A stretch of DNA of 56,702 nt from the sequence record NC_024146.1, one strand, 5' to 3'. This DNA is from Enterobacteria phage 9g. The notes beneath the pieces are model-generated. The model was not told the origin of the DNA, made no database searches, and was given only the letters and a program-made list of their open reading frames with translations. Below, piece by piece: positions 2,010 to 9,924 of the stretch; positions within the stretch are counted from its first letter, which is position 1; each line of letters starts with the position of its first letter. The position numbers and the translations under genes are program-made.

Positions 2010-2998
2010 AGACGAAATCCTACAATTACCCCACGTAGATTTTCACCATAAAAAATAATAGGAGTTGAAAGACCCCTTTCGTCCTTTTCATTGAAACGCG
2101 AAGCATCCCAATCTGTCGCAAGTCCTTTCAACTGCATAATGAGATCTATATTATACACGCCAATTGACTTAGATTCACGGAACATTGCACTAGCACCATC
2201 CAGCTCGTTGTAATGTGTGCGTACAACACCATTTTCCATGTAAATACGCCCATCCCGCTCACAGAACGGTTTTATCTTTTCTAAGCAATTAAAAAGCTCA
2301 GTATCAAGCGTATAGACGTTGGCCCCATTTTCTGTACGCTCAATTATCTTATCAATGTTAGGCCACTTTAATTCCAGCAATTGTGTACGCAACCAGCAAC
2401 CGTCTTCGTAGTGAAATGTCATACTGGTATCTGTACATTGAATTCTTACTGGTGGCTTTTTAATACGCAATAATTCTTTGATGGCCATACGTGGCACAAC
2501 ACAATCTACAGGGAATACAGCACCGAACCAATACTGTATAATACTAGCGTTGTTGGTCGCGTACATGCTGCCCTGTTTTACCAGCACGCCGCAAGACCAC
2601 GGGCGGGAAGCATCGTCGCTTATAAACGGCGTTACACGGCTTAAACCGTTGAGAAAAAGCTGACCGTCTATTTCGTGAATTGTTCCTTCTGGCTCTACGT
2701 GTGCAGTTGGTTTCTGAAGAGTATCCACACTGACCTTAAAGCCACCAGACTTAATGCTCAACTTACCATTCGCTAACATTGTCATCTGTACAGCTTCGTC
2801 ACATGCTGCAATAGCCTTGAGCATTGGTTCAGCTTTAGGAGTACAGTCAATATTTAGTGGTACTGGACTACATAATGAAATAGTTCCGTTAAACCCGCGC
2901 ACAGTACCATCAACAATACGGAAGTGAGTTAAACCTTCCTGAAGTTCTTTCTTAGCTACAGAACCCTGAACAAACTTTAAAGCATCAAGTAAATCCAT
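2006..2998 (-). CDS. Putative beta-sliding-clamp-like processivity factor
   Basis: 330 aa. Motif layout resembles DnaN: N-terminal L..ALKFVQGSV, then GKLSIKSGGFKVSVDTL (cf. DnaN ...RSGRSRFSLSTL) and ATNNASII (cf. ATDGHRLA). Translationally coupled to the polymerase. Call is from remembered motif pattern, not a search. Confidence 0.45.
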   Translation of the reverse strand: MDLLDALKFVQGSVAKKELQEGLTHFRIVDGTVRGFNGTISLCSPVPLNIDCTPKAEPMLKAIAACDEAVQMTMLANGKLSIKSGGFKVSVDTLQKPTAHVEPEGTIHEIDGQLFLNGLSRVTPFISDDASRPWSCGVLVKQGSMYATNNASIIQYWFGAVFPVDCVVPRMAIKELLRIKKPPVRIQCTDTSMTFHYEDGCWLRTQLLELKWPNIDKIIERTENGANVYTLDTELFNCLEKIKPFCERDGRIYMENGVVRTHYNELDGASAMFRESKSIGVYNIDLIMQLKGLATDWDASRFNEKDERGLSTPIIFYGENLRGVIVGFRL

Positions 2999-3006
2999 AA
3001 GTAACC

Positions 3007-3960
3007 TTATTCGTCAAATAAATCCTGGAGACGTTCGTTGAACTTCCCATTGTGGTTAGCAAGAATCATAGCGTTGACCACACCATACGCCCATAAATTG
3101 TATGCAGCGCGTGATTCGTATATGGTTGAAAGTCGTTCGTATGTGAAACCTGACTCCTCTAAGTAGCGCAGAACATTATTCTGTTCTATTTCTGAAAGAT
3201 TACAGATGTGCTGCCCTTGATAGTGGCGTGACGGTGACTTTTCAGATACCTGCATTGGGCCCCACTTAGGAGTTTCAATAGCACCAAACGCCGCAGATTG
3301 AATCCAGGAGGATGAGTCACAGGAGTACCACGGGTAACGCTCCATAAGCGGGCGGGACGTAATACCAAAACCATGAACTTTAATCTTAGCGCGTCCACTA
3401 CCGTCCACAAGGTGCTTATCCCATACCCTGTCCAACCATACCTGAAGTTGTTGTGTACTCGCTCCAACAAGACCACCGAGCGTGATATACTCATAGTTTC
3501 GCACATAATGGTCCAGGTATTCAAAAGGTTCACCGGCGTGGAAGCATGGTAAAGGTCTTACACCTCTGGCTTCCATCTCTTCCTGGTTGCGCCACGTTTG
3601 AAGTGGATCACCAATACCATCGAGTACAGAAGCCATAAGCGAACCATCTTCCACACGGATGATATCTATGTTTCGTTGGATGTAATCACAGTATTCTTTA
3701 ACCGATAACGTAACTCCCAAAGTGTAAGCTGAGAACGCTCCGGAGTCGAGGAATATCTTGGCCCCATCGGCACGCATGGCATCAACATAGGATTGCTTTC
3801 CAACGTAGTGCCAGGATTCGAGAATGTTTGGAATATTTTCGACAACACGTTTTTCTTGTTCGTTGAGTTTGACATAGCGGTTCATTCCTGGTTTATAGCT
3901 GTTCGTATATACGGCAGCCATATAAATCTGAAAGGTATAGTTGATATCTTGTCTGTGCAT
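3007..3960 (-). CDS. dpdA: DpdA-like DNA-guanine transglycosylase (TGT superfamily) for 7-deazaguanine insertion into DNA
   Basis: 317 aa. TGT-like IFLDSGAFSAY (cf. TDSGGFQ) and overall TGT-like length; sits at the 3' end of the folE-queD-queC-queE operon. ATG at 3960 preceded by GGTGA. Confidence 0.75.
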   Translation of the reverse strand: MHRQDINYTFQIYMAAVYTNSYKPGMNRYVKLNEQEKRVVENIPNILESWHYVGKQSYVDAMRADGAKIFLDSGAFSAYTLGVTLSVKEYCDYIQRNIDIIRVEDGSLMASVLDGIGDPLQTWRNQEEMEARGVRPLPCFHAGEPFEYLDHYVRNYEYITLGGLVGASTQQLQVWLDRVWDKHLVDGSGRAKIKVHGFGITSRPLMERYPWYSCDSSSWIQSAAFGAIETPKWGPMQVSEKSPSRHYQGQHICNLSEIEQNNVLRYLEESGFTYERLSTIYESRAAYNLWAYGVVNAMILANHNGKFNERLQDLFDE

Positions 3961-4029
3961 TGTTCACCTAACAAATAAGCGCCCGTAGGCGCTTATTATA
4001 TTAAAGATAATGTATGATTCGCAAATCAG

Positions 4030-4644
4030 TTACTTTTTACACGCTTCAAGAAATTCCCGACGCCATGTGTCACCAGTCACGTCCGGTAATACACCATCAC
4101 CCAATGCAGTACGTCCGCGGAATGCTTTAGTGATGGTTGAGCTTCCGCATACCTGTTTAACACCGCGCGACTCCATGCACATATGTTTTGCATCGATGTA
4201 GACACACACAGCTTTCGGGTCTAAGTGTTCCACGATAGCATCCGCAATCTGATTAGTCAGACGTTCTTGGACTTGCAAACGTCGAGCGAAAGCATCAACT
4301 ACCCGAGATAACTTGCTGAGACCGACGATTTTTCCATTTGGGACATACCCAACCACTGCATGACCAATAATAGGAGCCATGTGATGCTCACAATGACTAT
4401 ATACAGGGATATCACGGACGATGACCATTTCATCACAGTTTTCCCCACCATCTTCAAATGTCTTGAACAGGGATGCGATATCAACAGAATAACCCCCGAA
4501 CCATGTAGCATAAGCCTTAGCTACACGATCTGGAGTTTCTACTAGACCTTCACGCAAGTCATCGCCACCTTCAATCAACTTTAAAATCTTTTCAATACTG
4601 TGCGAAATTTCTGCTCTGTTTGTCATCTTTGTAAATTCATTCAT
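4030..4644 (-). CDS. folE: GTP cyclohydrolase I (FolE)
   Basis: Clear FolE core: ETPDRVAKAY, VIVRDIPVYSHCEHHMAPI, GLSKLSRVVDAFARRLQVQERLT. The longest ORF begins with TTG at 4680 and overlaps queD; the ATG at 4644 with an upstream AAGGA is preferred (4626 is an alternative). Confidence 0.88.
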   Translation of the reverse strand: MNEFTKMTNRAEISHSIEKILKLIEGGDDLREGLVETPDRVAKAYATWFGGYSVDIASLFKTFEDGGENCDEMVIVRDIPVYSHCEHHMAPIIGHAVVGYVPNGKIVGLSKLSRVVDAFARRLQVQERLTNQIADAIVEHLDPKAVCVYIDAKHMCMESRGVKQVCGSSTITKAFRGRTALGDGVLPDVTGDTWRREFLEACKK

Positions 4645-4670
4645 GGTTTGCAGTTTCCTTGTGTGGTCAA

Positions 4671-5204
4671 TTATTTGCAATAGTTAACATGGCATTTGGA
4701 CGTTTCTTCAATGGTGCATTCTACCAATTCAACACCATATTGGTCAAGTAGTTGAGGACCAATTACGTCAACCATATATGCAGCTAAGTTTTCCGCAGTT
4801 GGGTTGAATGGTAAAGCTACCAAAGAATTAAAGAAAGGATCGTAATCTTCATCCGTCACTAAATTGTTCTCACGTGCAAACTTAGTTGATGCAACAACAA
4901 TGAGCGAATTAATCATGCTGTCTTGTTCCCAATGCAGGAACTTATGATCCCAATTATCTTCCAACCACTGGCAGAGCGTAGTTTTAACCACACTAAAGTC
5001 GATAACCCGACCTACGTCGTCCAGCGAACCTTCTAGAGCAAATCCACTTACAGACTTAACGTAACCTTCCGACAATGTTTTCTTTGGTGCAACTTTAAAA
5101 TGGAACTTATAGTTGTGACCATGAAGATGACGACATTTGCTTTCATGCCCTACAACACGATGCCCAGCGCAAATCTCATGTGAACGAATAACAGTGTAAC
5201 CCAT
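4671..5204 (-). CDS. queD: 6-carboxy-5,6,7,8-tetrahydropterin synthase (QueD / PTPS family)
   Basis: 177 aa. N-terminal CAGHRVVGHESKCRHLHGHNYKF (Cx..HGH zinc/catalytic motif of QueD/PTPS). Confidence 0.85.
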   Translation of the reverse strand: MGYTVIRSHEICAGHRVVGHESKCRHLHGHNYKFHFKVAPKKTLSEGYVKSVSGFALEGSLDDVGRVIDFSVVKTTLCQWLEDNWDHKFLHWEQDSMINSLIVVASTKFARENNLVTDEDYDPFFNSLVALPFNPTAENLAAYMVDVIGPQLLDQYGVELVECTIEETSKCHVNYCK

Positions 5205-5206
5205 TT

Positions 5207-6622
5207 TTATTCCTCGTTTTCGTATTTAATAACTTCTTGTGCGTTATTAATATTAAACGCAGTCCGGCGCATCATGCAAGGGCCGCAAGTACCGCAATGC
5301 AAATTCCCGTTACGGTAACAACTCCAGGTGTGCTCCAACGGGGCCCCTAAACGCAGACCTGTAGCGACAATTTCGTGCTTCATTAAGTTACCTACAGGCA
5401 TGAGCACTTCAACGCGCTTACCATCCCCTACAGCGAACGGTAACACCTGATTAAAGCGATTAATAAACTCAGGTTCGTTGTCCGGATAGGCTCCAGCTTC
5501 TTCTAGGTTGTTACCAAGAACAATATAGTCGAAACCGTTAGCTTCTGCGTATGCAGTAGCAACAGAAAGCATCACAAGGTTACGAGCTGGAACCCATTCA
5601 TGCGCAAACTCAGCGCCTTCTTCACCGCCAGCGATTGCAGCATCTTGATCAAATAATGGGCTATCCTTCTTATCATAAATTGGGATTGGAAATTCAATTA
5701 ATGGAACCCCCATCACTTCCGCAATCTTACGAATAGCATACAGCTCATTAGTTTCTGCACGACAACCATATTGGAAGTTAATCAGAGTAACATCTAAACC
5801 ATTGGACTTACACATTTGAGCTGCTACTGTGCTGTCCATACCACCACTGGCGACAACTAACGCGCGTTGAGTCTGCTTATTTGGAATAAGATCAACTTCA
5901 TTGCATACATCAGTTGATGTAACCACATTACATGAATAAGGCTTCAGCATCTGCTTAATAGCGCGGTTGGGTAGCATGTCTTCCTGGCTGGCGAAATACA
6001 TACCAGTATCAGTCTTACCAATCCAGATTGGACGATAATTACATGCTGTAAACACGCATCCCGGAAAGGAATCATGTGTTGCAAGGATTGCGAAGCTACC
6101 TTTCAATTTGCGAACAACTTCATGAAACACACTGTACAGGTAATTAAAGTCAGACAAACACATTTCATCTGCTGAAAGTGTACATTCTGCTAACTGTTCG
6201 ACAATCGCAGCACTATCAATCTTAGTCTGCAGGGCATAGGTACGAATGTCTTTATCGTTCGCAATAGTACCGTTATGAACAATAGTCCAATCATCCATGT
6301 GATACGGTTGCTGGTCCCACTCATTCTTGTCAACAATCCACTCTGTAGTCGGTTCAGCGCGAGCGTTACCAATCATTGTGAAGCTACCAATAGCTCCAGC
6401 ATGAGATGCAATGCGCCCAACTTTAACAAGACGTTCCAGTGACGTTTCCTTACCGACACTAACGATACGTTGCGGGTGCATACTGTGGTCACCATGCGTA
6501 AAGCGTACACCAAGACCATCACGACCACGCTTGATACTGGCTTTAATAAGATCCTCAATGTCGTTACGGATAATAAGACTTTCAGGTTGACCGTTAGTAA
6601 TAACACCAAAGATAGAGCACAT
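5207..6622 (-). CDS. queC: Gat-QueC fusion: class II (Ntn) glutamine amidotransferase domain fused to a QueC-like 7-cyano-7-deazaguanine synthase domain
   Basis: N-terminus after the start Met is CSIFGV (Cys2 nucleophile, as in AsnB/GlmS-type GATases). C-terminal half has the PP-loop SGGMDS, VPARN, and the zinc motif CGTCGPC of QueC. Start set to the internal ATG at 6620-6622 so that Cys is residue 2; it lies 1 nt after the upstream gene's stop. Confidence 0.85.
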   Translation of the reverse strand: MCSIFGVITNGQPESLIIRNDIEDLIKASIKRGRDGLGVRFTHGDHSMHPQRIVSVGKETSLERLVKVGRIASHAGAIGSFTMIGNARAEPTTEWIVDKNEWDQQPYHMDDWTIVHNGTIANDKDIRTYALQTKIDSAAIVEQLAECTLSADEMCLSDFNYLYSVFHEVVRKLKGSFAILATHDSFPGCVFTACNYRPIWIGKTDTGMYFASQEDMLPNRAIKQMLKPYSCNVVTSTDVCNEVDLIPNKQTQRALVVASGGMDSTVAAQMCKSNGLDVTLINFQYGCRAETNELYAIRKIAEVMGVPLIEFPIPIYDKKDSPLFDQDAAIAGGEEGAEFAHEWVPARNLVMLSVATAYAEANGFDYIVLGNNLEEAGAYPDNEPEFINRFNQVLPFAVGDGKRVEVLMPVGNLMKHEIVATGLRLGAPLEHTWSCYRNGNLHCGTCGPCMMRRTAFNINNAQEVIKYENEE

Positions 6623-6623
6623 A

Positions 6624-7385
6624 TTATTTACCTTCCTTAACCATTTCAATTTCACGCTCAACGGATGCAATAATATCGTTGAGGTCTTCCAGTACGTCTT
6701 TATGACCGCGCTCACCCGCACACAGCACCTTCTTCAGTGCATGTTGCATGGGCCCACTGGTTACATTGAATGCTTTAATTACGTCGTACACGTCAACCCA
6801 TACATCAATTTCGATTGGGCTACCGTTAATGTCATGGGATTCAAAAGTTTTAATTTTGCGCATATATTTATTTGGACGTGGAGCTTTAATCTCCTGGATA
6901 CAACCATTGTCGATAAACGTTTCTTTAATGAATACTTCAGGATTGCCTTCTTTGTCATGATCAACGTTAAAGACATTCGTAAGTAGATCGTCCATGATAC
7001 TTGTTAATTTATGAGTAGACGTTGTGTACTTCATGGTATTCGCTTCCGCTTCCTCTGCTGCTTTCTGACTTCTTCTGGCAGAAGTATTGATACGCCATTT
7101 GTAGAGTGCATTACGTGGAGGTGTTACATGCGTGTTGTAGACCGTCTTTAAGTTCATAAGATCGTGTCCATCCATACCTTCAACAAAGACAGTGAGTGCA
7201 GGACAACTATCGTTCAGAACATCCACCAAATATCCTTCCCGAATTACAGATGCAAGAGCTGCATGTGACGCAGCTTGAGAAACTGTGGTTACATAATGTT
7301 TCACAAATCCGTCTTCATCAAACAGACACTGGTTCAACACATTTTCTGGAACAATTTCACCGAGTAATTGAACGTACTTATTCAT
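6624..7385 (-). CDS. Hypothetical protein embedded in the 7-deazaguanine operon
   Basis: 253 aa, ATG at 7385 with AAGGT upstream; tightly packed between queE and gat-queC. No motif recognised by eye. Confidence 0.6.
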   Translation of the reverse strand: MNKYVQLLGEIVPENVLNQCLFDEDGFVKHYVTTVSQAASHAALASVIREGYLVDVLNDSCPALTVFVEGMDGHDLMNLKTVYNTHVTPPRNALYKWRINTSARRSQKAAEEAEANTMKYTTSTHKLTSIMDDLLTNVFNVDHDKEGNPEVFIKETFIDNGCIQEIKAPRPNKYMRKIKTFESHDINGSPIEIDVWVDVYDVIKAFNVTSGPMQHALKKVLCAGERGHKDVLEDLNDIIASVEREIEMVKEGK

Positions 7386-7447
7386 AATGATTTACCTTAT
7401 CAGTTGAACATACCATGTCTTCCAGCGTGTTTTGAATATGTATAACT

Positions 7448-8212
7448 TCACTCTACGCCTAAATATTTATGAATCTGCAATTGCACGATGTAATTGTGCT
7501 TCATTGCATATTTAACGACAGCTTGAGCGTTTGCTTTATTAGCATCGTCGTCCTGTTCATCCATAGGTTGAAGATAAATTTTACCTTTAAAGTGTACAGG
7601 TGGACGTGCGATAAATGGTGTCGCACGGTGATCCAGTGCCTGCAACGGTAATCCATCTTCCTCGTTGACGTTTCCGCTTTTCATTACATATTTGAAAGCA
7701 TCCGCTCGAGCGGAAACGCTAGGGTGGACCTTTGCTGCCTTAGGACTACATACTACCACACAGTTATAGTTGAGTTCACGCGGGATAGGCATAGTTCCGT
7801 TAGTTTCAACCTGTACACGATAACCTTTCATATCAATGAGGTAATTGATAAAATTAGCAACTTCAGGTTGACGGAAAGGTTCGCCGCCCGTAATGACAAC
7901 TAAGTCAGTCTTGGCTTCACCAGTGACACGGACAATCTCTTGCCAAATGTCACCGTGATTCATCTTCTTACGATTGGACGTATAGTTTGTATCACATCCT
8001 GGGCATTGCAAATTACAACCAGCTAATCGAACAAACACGGCAGGTTGACCACAAAATGGGCCTTCGCCTTGAATGGTATGAAAAATGGAATGCACGTCAA
8101 GAATACCACGTTCACGAACTAACTTCTCAGGTTCCTGAGTATTAATAATTTTCATATGATTTCCAAATTTGGCTTGAGCCCAGTGGTGGGCGATAATGGC
8201 TTGTGCAAACAT
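7448..8212 (-). CDS. queE: 7-carboxy-7-deazaguanine synthase (QueE), radical SAM
   Basis: IFHTIQGEGPFCGQPAVFVRLAGCNLQCPGCDT carries the QueE N-terminal signature and the CxxxCxxC radical-SAM cluster. The longest ORF starts with TTG at 8236; the ATG at 8212 preceded by GAGGT is preferred (8155 is an alternative). Confidence 0.85.
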   Translation of the reverse strand: MFAQAIIAHHWAQAKFGNHMKIINTQEPEKLVRERGILDVHSIFHTIQGEGPFCGQPAVFVRLAGCNLQCPGCDTNYTSNRKKMNHGDIWQEIVRVTGEAKTDLVVITGGEPFRQPEVANFINYLIDMKGYRVQVETNGTMPIPRELNYNCVVVCSPKAAKVHPSVSARADAFKYVMKSGNVNEEDGLPLQALDHRATPFIARPPVHFKGKIYLQPMDEQDDDANKANAQAVVKYAMKHNYIVQLQIHKYLGVE

Positions 8213-8280
8213 TTGAACCTCGGGGTAAGATAACAAAGGGGCAGTAAATGCCCCTTCTGAGTTTCCGAAGTATCTACAGA

Positions 8281-9105
8281 TTACTCTGCAGTTTTCTGAG
8301 ACGGAATTTCTACGTTAGCGGCCGCTTGTGCAATATTAGCAGGTACTGGAACGGATACGCGACCAGTAATGCCCATGTATTTCTTCCAGCGAGCGTATTC
8401 CGCTTTGACGTTCGCTTCGTTCAGGCCTTTGTCCAGTGCAACAGGCAGAACGTAGCTGATCGGCGCAGTCTGACCGAGCTCCAGGGTCACAGCGTCAAAG
8501 ATATCCCATGCAGCACGGCACAGAGTACCGACACCTGGCTTGCGAATACCGTTCTGTTCAGGCTCTTTCTTAGCTTCGCGTTCTGCTGCTTTACGAGCAC
8601 GCTCTTCGTCCTGCAGACGTTTCTTCTCAGCGCGTTGTGCGTCACGTTGCGCTTTTTCAGCGGCCTTAGTGGCTTCGCGGGCAGCGGATACACGACCTTT
8701 AACATCTTTCAGAGTGGATTCAATGGAGGAAACCAGATCTTCAGATGCTGCAACGGCAGTTTTCAGCTGATCGTTGTCTTTAACTTTACGTGCTGCCGCT
8801 TTAACAGCTTTCAGACCTTCTTTAGCGGTCTTCAGTTGAGCGGTAACTACGCCTTCAACTGCTTTAACTTCGTCCAGCAATGAACCTTCGTTCAGGGTCG
8901 CGAACTGTTCTTTAACAGCGGACACAGCACCTTCGATCACATTGTAACCGGCAGTGGCTTCGTTCAATGCGGCGTCAACTTTAGCCTGCAATTCACGTGC
9001 TGCTTTTTCTTCAGCTTCACGTTTTTTCTTTGCTTCAGCTTCTTTTGCTGCTTTCTTTGCTGCTTCTTCTGCTTCCAGTTGTTCTGGAGTTTTCTCTTTA
9101 GCCAT
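8281..9105 (-). CDS. Hypothetical coiled-coil protein (Ala/Glu/Lys-rich)
   Basis: 274 aa, ATG at 9105 with GAGGAT upstream; N-terminal ~190 aa are a low-complexity helical A/E/K repeat. Confidence 0.6.
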   Translation of the reverse strand: MAKEKTPEQLEAEEAAKKAAKEAEAKKKREAEEKAARELQAKVDAALNEATAGYNVIEGAVSAVKEQFATLNEGSLLDEVKAVEGVVTAQLKTAKEGLKAVKAAARKVKDNDQLKTAVAASEDLVSSIESTLKDVKGRVSAAREATKAAEKAQRDAQRAEKKRLQDEERARKAAEREAKKEPEQNGIRKPGVGTLCRAAWDIFDAVTLELGQTAPISYVLPVALDKGLNEANVKAEYARWKKYMGITGRVSVPVPANIAQAAANVEIPSQKTAE

Positions 9106-9160
9106 GATTTAAATCCTCACAGTGTGGTTATTGGTTGTGAACTACGTTCTAAGTGGTTGC

Positions 9161-9189
9161 ACTATAACCCCTCTAAAAGAACTATGCAA
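9161..9189 (-). promoter_or_regulatory. Candidate sigma70-type promoter (-35 TTGCAT, 17-bp spacer, -10 TATAGT) for gene 8281..9105
   Basis: On the minus strand: TTGCAT (9189-9184), 17 nt, TATAGT (9166-9161), ~55 nt upstream of the ATG. Confidence 0.35.
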
Positions 9190-9201
9190 TAATTTAGTTA
9201 A

Positions 9202-9924
9202 TTAATTTAAGCCACGTTCTTTTACCCAGACCCCTAATGTATTACTTGATGTATTACGCTTCACACCTTGTGCCTCTAAACGATCCATCATTTGTTTTCT
9301 AAGCTGTAGGATTTCCTTCTTGTCACGAGGTTCACCAGCTTCTTTCCACATTTCGTCAGCAATAACGAAAATAATATCGCGAGTGCCGGCTGTACGCAAC
9401 GTTGCGGCACGTTTTTCGTTTGTCGGTGTGCTAGTACCTTGCCGCTCCCTTGTCGGTGTCCATGCCCCTTGTATGCCCATATTTGTTTGTACGGTTGGGC
9501 CGTCAATGATGGTGGATTCCAATGAACTATCATTCCGTACTTGAATATTAGGCTCCTCCCCCAAATCTGGAACAGAGCTGCCTTCGCGGTACATGCACTC
9601 ACCCTCTTTATTACTAGCAATTGCCCAGTCCGCTTGTTCAGCCACATCCGCATCTATCACTGTCTCCGGTATTTCATTTAAAAAGTAATGGATGATCTTA
9701 CTGATCATTTTCTTTGGATATAAAGCACCTTGCTTATTACCCGTTAAGTTGATATACAAAAGTTGCATTTGCACATCATCAAACTCTTTATACAGTTCTT
9801 CAACTTCTAACGGAAGAACTACAGAACTTTCGCTACAGCATAGAATTCCATACTCATGAAGACGTTGGAAGTTTGGATGCTTGGCTAATACCTGCATCCG
9901 ATCATAATCAATTAAGACGTACAT
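9202..9924 (-). CDS. Hypothetical protein
   Basis: 240 aa, ATG at 9924 with GGAAGGA upstream. Confidence 0.6.
   Translation of the reverse strand: MYVLIDYDRMQVLAKHPNFQRLHEYGILCCSESSVVLPLEVEELYKEFDDVQMQLLYINLTGNKQGALYPKKMISKIIHYFLNEIPETVIDADVAEQADWAIASNKEGECMYREGSSVPDLGEEPNIQVRNDSSLESTIIDGPTVQTNMGIQGAWTPTRERQGTSTPTNEKRAATLRTAGTRDIIFVIADEMWKEAGEPRDKKEILQLRKQMMDRLEAQGVKRNTSSNTLGVWVKERGLN

Follow-up and report, generated by a model that had tools for sequence, protein, structure and literature searches.

The minus-strand gene at positions 5207–6622 of Enterobacteria phage 9g (NC_024146.1; the 56,702-nucleotide stretch analyzed here, referred to as the window) is gat-queC, a fusion whose function, architecture and start codon were already published or annotated. 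Published genetics have shown that, when gat-queC is present, DpdA puts archaeosine (dG+) rather than preQ0 into DNA. Our analysis indicates that the occurrence of cysteine immediately after the initiator methionine is not due to chance. The ATG at 6622 is backed by four independent lines of evidence: annotation, homologues, comparative genetics and published primers. We consider it very likely that the complete model is correct, namely that translation begins at this ATG and is coupled to the stop codon of the preceding gene, gp07, and that the resulting Gat-QueC protein, with glutamine as its presumed ammonia source, would convert CDG to G+ for insertion by DpdA. Gat-QueC provides phage 9g DNA with archaeosine, a modification that blocks many restriction enzymes.

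In a protein look-up, the 471-residue product matched YP_009032329/AHN84522 (AHN84522.1/YP_009032329.1) of phage 9g exactly, and Hutinet et al., 2019 (PMC6884629), give YP_009032329 as the accession of the phage 9g Gat-QueC in their Supplementary Data 1. Residues 1–471 align to profile positions 1–475 of PHROG 10428. In the phage collection, 16 Nonagvirus records align with the gene at 92–97.5% identity, the best being HdSG1 (97.5%), and the best match to the first 25 kb of 9g is JenK1 (96.4%). The RefSeq name carried by the protein in 9g, JenK1, SE1, JenP1 and JenP2, "L-glutamine-D-fructose-6-phosphate aminotransferase", is a misnomer for a known enzyme.

The gene clusters with dpdA, folE, queD and queE, all of which are on the minus strand (Table 1). 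The folE, queD and queE genes of 9g each complement the corresponding E. coli mutant, with 9g queD restoring ΔqueD (PMC6884629). For two of these genes the longest open reading frame is not the gene itself, as folE starts at ATG 4644 rather than at TTG 4680 and queE at ATG 8212 rather than at TTG 8236. A terminator-like hairpin (8257–8235) lies just upstream of queE. A promoter and terminator scan of positions 2900–9400 found sites to be no more numerous than in shuffled sequence, and there is no sign that gat-queC has a transcript start of its own. Although only two nucleotides (5205–5206) separate gat-queC from queD in 9g, one to three small hypothetical ORFs lie between these genes in FritzHoffmann, ChristophMerian, BRET, PD328 and Kpn2-P2 (inserts at L002 7516–8454, L004 1916–2245, L007 1916–2239, L011 1916–2276 and L012 2089–2779).

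Table 1. Features of gat-queC and its neighborhood in the window
Feature	Position	Strand	Basis and remarks
dpdA (DNA 7-deazaguanine transglycosylase)	3007..3960	(-)	PHROG 887, E = 2e-98; annotated as DpdA in FritzHoffmann; function from PMC6884629
folE (GTP cyclohydrolase I)	4030..4644	(-)	Pfam, E = 6.4e-63; start from published primer GO92
queD (6-carboxytetrahydropterin synthase)	4671..5204	(-)	Pfam PTPS, E = 1.2e-20; 2 nt 3′ of gat-queC
gat-queC CDS	5207..6622	(-)	471 aa + stop; ATG 6622-6620, TAA 5209-5207
QueC (PP-loop ATP pyrophosphatase) domain, ~residues 246-471	5207..5887	(-)	Pfam; aligns to 2pg3 and 3bl5
Class II (Ntn-type) GAT domain, ~residues 1-245	5888..6622	(-)	Pfam GATase_7, NF001484, Foldseek
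In-frame extension from GTG 6721, 33 codons	6623..6721	(-)	Corresponds to the 3′ end of gp07 in another frame
Shine-Dalgarno-like AAGGAAGG	6631..6638	(-)	8 nt 5′ of the gat-queC ATG, within the end of gp07 (putative translational coupling)
gp07 (9g_00007), 253-aa hypothetical	6624..7385	(-)	Between queE and gat-queC; PHROG 18443
queE (radical SAM 7-carboxy-7-deazaguanine synthase)	7448..8212	(-)	Pfam Radical_SAM + Fer4_12; ATG 8212; CDS of relatives 765 nt

All Nonagvirus relatives have a conserved gp07 gene between queE and gat-queC, with apparent translational coupling to gat-queC, while in Klebsiella phage Kpn2-P2 a different ORF of 112 amino acids occupies its position. Comparison of gp07 with Pfam and NCBIfam returned no family, and PHROG 18443, to which it belongs, is of unknown function; several further PHROGs, likewise without a known function, match its C-terminal ~80 residues.

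In the ORF list, the longest open reading frame around gat-queC extends from a GTG at 6721 to 5207 on the minus strand (504 amino acids), and the ATG at 6622–6620 lies 33 codons inside it ((6721 − 6622)/3 = 33). Read on the minus strand, the start region shows AAGGAAGGTAAATAATATGTGCTCT, in which the gp07 TAA (6626–6624) is followed by a single T (6623) and then by the gat-queC ATG, from which translation yields MCSIFGVITNG... The preliminary description had noted all three of these features, the 33-codon extension, the cysteine directly after methionine and the single nucleotide between stop and start; its assumption that the upstream alternative begins with a methionine codon was mistaken, since the codon at 6721 is GTG. 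The Shine-Dalgarno-like site reads AAGGAAGG in 9 of 12 Nonagvirus sequences and AAAGAAGG in the other 3. All 12 related phages examined (11 Nonagvirus and Kpn2-P2) have a 1416-nt CDS annotated from the equivalent ATG, which in each of the 11 Nonagvirus relatives sits 1 nt past the stop of its neighbor; in Kpn2-P2 the CDS overlaps the preceding gene.

The same N terminus is found across the family. Among homologues with 50–95% identity, 117 of 121 begin with Met-Cys, and 2 others carry Met-Cys 21 residues in. A search of the full library gave 132 representatives of at least 420 amino acids (clusters at 50% identity), of which 106 begin with Met-Cys and 4 with Val-Cys. In an alignment of the 125 representatives up to 600 amino acids in length, query included, which was used for all conservation counts, the Cys2 column contains cysteine in 121. 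About a dozen distant family members (P0200–P0295) begin with Met, then Ala, Ser or Gly, then Cys, and in four a GTG-encoded Val precedes the Cys. Either the starts of these proteins are miscalled or the proteins require additional N-terminal trimming.

Could the protein nonetheless begin upstream, at GTG 6721 or another GTG or TTG, with the 33 residues either retained or cleaved as a propeptide to expose the cysteine? In B. subtilis PurF, propeptide removal exposes the cysteine. In 9g and all but one of the 11 other Nonagvirus genomes, no stop closes this frame over the 37 codons 5′ of the ATG, GTG or TTG codons are available at −33, −31, −16, −13, −11 and −9, and in some distant family members one residue separates Met from Cys. 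Against this, the frame is interrupted by an in-frame stop 22 codons 5′ of the ATG in JenP1 and 4 codons 5′ in Kpn2-P2, where there is no alternative start, and both the homologues and the PHROG profile start at Met-Cys. Moreover, the region is the conserved C terminus of gp07 in another frame, and it varies as such. Across the 12 Nonagvirus genomes, 19 substitutions fall in the 111 nt that precede the ATG (the 33 extension codons and 4 more). Read in the gp07 frame, 13 of them are synonymous and 6 are not; read in the extended gat-queC frame, 2 are synonymous and the other 17, including one that creates a stop, are non-synonymous. This comparison of sequences indicates that the extension is not coding in the gat-queC frame. 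The published primers point the same way: in the forward primer GO96, a synthetic ribosome-binding site precedes atgtgctctatctttggtgttattactaacgg, an exact match to 6622..6591, and the reverse primer GO97 matches 5207..5242 exactly. Since GO96 starts at ATG 6622, the fully active published construct (PMC6884629) lacks the 33 upstream codons, and the Met-Cys form suffices for activity. We therefore regard initiation upstream as exceedingly improbable. The 504-residue form from GTG 6721 was rejected based on the comparative evidence and the published primers, and the Met-Cys start favored in the preliminary description, although correct, is identical to the start that had already been annotated and cloned.

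The N-terminal half of Gat-QueC is predicted to be a class II amidotransferase, with conservation of both the catalytic residues and the Ntn-hydrolase fold. Pfam GATase_7 matches residues 97–217 (28.9 bits, cutoff 25), and the alignment to the NCBIfam GlmS model NF001484 begins at residue 1. Key residues are Cys2, R32-G33-R34-D35, R88, H116-N117-G118 and D136, with R88 and D136 equated with GlmS residues by motif position. R88, G118 and D136 are invariant (125/125), N117 is present in 124/125 and the RGRD motif (residues 32–35) is nearly invariant; the HNGTIAN of Gat-QueC aligns with the HNGIITN of human GFAT1. An alignment of 30 sequences was used to build an AlphaFold model, which has two domains (mean pLDDT 86.9, pTM 0.83). 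When this predicted model was compared with the PDB using Foldseek, the matches included GlmS and GFAT (E ~1e-15 to 1e-17), the isolated GlmS glutaminase domain 1xff_A (target TM-score 0.77, rmsd 3.6), the Ntn hydrolase EgtC (target TM-score 0.71), PurF and AsnB (1ct9). When the PDB was searched by sequence, the matches were limited to QueC, Cap9, TtuA and, weakly, GFAT/GlmS, with no solved Gat-QueC among them.

The C-terminal half is recognized by Pfam QueC (PF06508; residues 253–458, E = 1.1e-55, 188.9 bits against a cutoff of 22) and scores 150.1 bits against the 150.3-bit cutoff of the NCBIfam QueC equivalog TIGR00364. It contains SGGMDS (259–264), VPARN (344–348), YPDN (379–382) and the zinc cysteines C435, C443, C446 and C449. 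S259, G261, D263, R347, N348, C435, C443 and C446 are invariant in 125/125, S264 is present in 123/125 and C449 in 117/125. The zinc cysteines are spaced C-x7-C-x2-C-x2-C, compared with C-x8-C-x2-C-x2-C in canonical QueC. Of the three pocket motifs that a 2026 study defined for canonical QueC (PMC13329287), two are altered in Gat-QueC. Although VPxRN and SGGxDS are kept, YxQxHxxE and YPDC give way family-wide to YGCRAE.NE and YPDN: YPDN (window 5474–5485, minus strand) replaces YPDC, with Asn in 125/125, and YGCRA (residues 285–289; window 5759–5773, minus strand) replaces YGQRH, with Cys in 102/125 and Ala in 121/125. These altered motifs may be candidates for setting whether the product is an amidine or a nitrile.

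The DNA of 9g carries dG+, and E. coli plasmid DNA contains 790 dPreQ0 per 10^6 nt when dpdA is expressed alone and ~45,000 dG+ per 10^6 nt, ~18% of G, with resistance to EcoRI, when dpdA and gat-queC are expressed together (PMC6884629). In ΔqueC cells dG+ was still formed to a similar extent, while ΔqueD cells lost the EcoRI-resistance phenotype; 9g gat-queC did not restore queuosine in the tRNA of E. coli ΔqueC (PMC6884629). The authors concluded that the presence of Gat-QueC in place of QueC leads to dG+, left open whether G+ is formed before or after insertion into DNA, and read the ΔqueC result as showing that preQ0 is made and then channeled to DpdA, rather than that CDG is converted directly to G+ (PMC6884629). 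According to a 2016 review, the clustering of gat-queC with dpdA had led to the prediction and then the detection of dG+ in 9g; the same review described Gat-QueC as not biochemically characterized. Later papers take it as accepted that phages with Gat-QueC have dG+ and phages with plain QueC have dPreQ0. Our literature search found no biochemical study of Gat-QueC, whether N-terminal sequencing, a Cys2 mutant, a glutaminase assay or an in vitro reaction. Since dG+ is made in ΔqueC cells and EcoRI resistance is lost in ΔqueD cells, Gat-QueC has QueC-type activity, and since queuosine is not restored in ΔqueC tRNA, no free preQ0 pool appears. The claim in the preliminary description that gat-queC decides which 7-deazaguanine enters the DNA is thus borne out by the published experiments.

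These observations suggest the following sequence of events. Translation of gat-queC would start at ATG 6622, coupled to the gp07 stop, and, by analogy with class II amidotransferases, removal of the initiator methionine would leave the cysteine as the N-terminal nucleophile, allowing the GAT domain to hydrolyze glutamine and hand the ammonia to the fused QueC domain. The QueC domain would adenylate CDG to give the amide ADG and would then activate ADG again; a second ammonia would yield the amidine G+, with no release of free preQ0, and DpdA would insert the G+ base into DNA. Because the tRNA pathway receives no free preQ0 and the overall level of modification increases ~57-fold, CDG is probably converted through ADG to G+ without release of the nitrile, with DpdA inserting G+. 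A fuller proposal, to which we give tentative credence at best, is that the choice of product is set by the GAT fusion together with the remodeled pocket, with CDG taken directly to the G+ base by addition of a second ammonia to the activated amide, no release of preQ0 and insertion of G+ by DpdA.

If the GAT domain supplies ammonia, need the product be an amidine? QueC requires ammonia for nitrile formation, and asparagine synthetase B (AsnB) likewise has the architecture of a class II GAT and a PP-loop ATP pyrophosphatase. Since QueC needs ammonia anyway and AsnB pairs the same domains, the GAT fusion alone does not imply an amidine, as the preliminary description had proposed; the dG+ product is known by experiment, not by domain architecture. 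It could therefore be argued that the GAT domain merely feeds ammonia to QueC for the preQ0 nitrile, as in AsnB or NAD synthetase, and that the amidine is made elsewhere. Besides the ammonia requirement and the shared architecture, with 1ct9 among the fold matches, this proposal could draw on a 2017 paper whose description of Gat-QueC mentioned just the synthesis of ADG and preQ0. We nevertheless judge it very unlikely. To our knowledge, E. coli has no archaeosine pathway. Yet in this host gat-queC and dpdA, with no other phage gene, change dPreQ0 to dG+, and the queuosine that depends on preQ0 is not restored in ΔqueC by gat-queC (PMC6884629); in addition, it is the phages with plain QueC that carry dPreQ0. 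A more serious alternative is that Gat-QueC supplies preQ0 to DpdA and then amidates the dPreQ0 in DNA to dG+, much as ArcS and QueF-L act on preQ0 in tRNA. The 9g DpdA is able to insert preQ0, a trace of dPreQ0 remains when gat-queC is expressed below dpdA and the authors did not fix the order of the steps (PMC6884629); moreover, the known archaeal G+ synthases work after insertion (QueF-L paper; 2016 review). However, later conversion alone does not explain why total modification rises from 790 to ~45,000 per 10^6 nt with gat-queC. In addition, the GAT and QueC domains fill all 471 residues, with no extra nucleic-acid-binding module in the Pfam matches or the AlphaFold model, and small-molecule pocket motifs of QueC are retained in the 125 representatives. 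On this indirect evidence, conversion after insertion is possible but rather doubtful, and we favor formation of G+ by Gat-QueC before DpdA acts.

The 9g protein does not differ from the published phage 9g Gat-QueC (YP_009032329, PMC6884629), to which it is identical over 471 residues and whose primers bracket 5207..6622. Archaeal GAT-QueC shares the two-domain architecture and has been reported to produce G+ in E. coli (QueF-L paper; 2016 review), and the archaeal and phage proteins form one cluster in a published similarity network (PMC6884629); however, the archaeal enzyme targets tRNA via arcTGT, while its phage counterpart acts on DNA together with DpdA. Canonical QueC (2pg3, 3bl5) has SGGxDS, VPxRN, the C-terminal cluster of four zinc cysteines and the overall domain in common with Gat-QueC, but lacks a GAT domain, makes the nitrile preQ0 and has YPDC and YGQRH where Gat-QueC has YPDN and YGCRA. 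GlmS/GFAT, PurF and AsnB share the N-terminal Cys, the Arg, Asn-Gly and Asp residues and the Ntn fold, although their acceptor domains and substrates are unlike those of Gat-QueC and the sequence similarity is weak (E ~0.002 to GFAT). Finally, ArcS and QueF-L also have the amidine G+ as end product, but their folds are unrelated to that of Gat-QueC, and QueF-L acts on preQ0 already in tRNA, using free ammonia and a thioimide intermediate (QueF-L paper; 2016 review).
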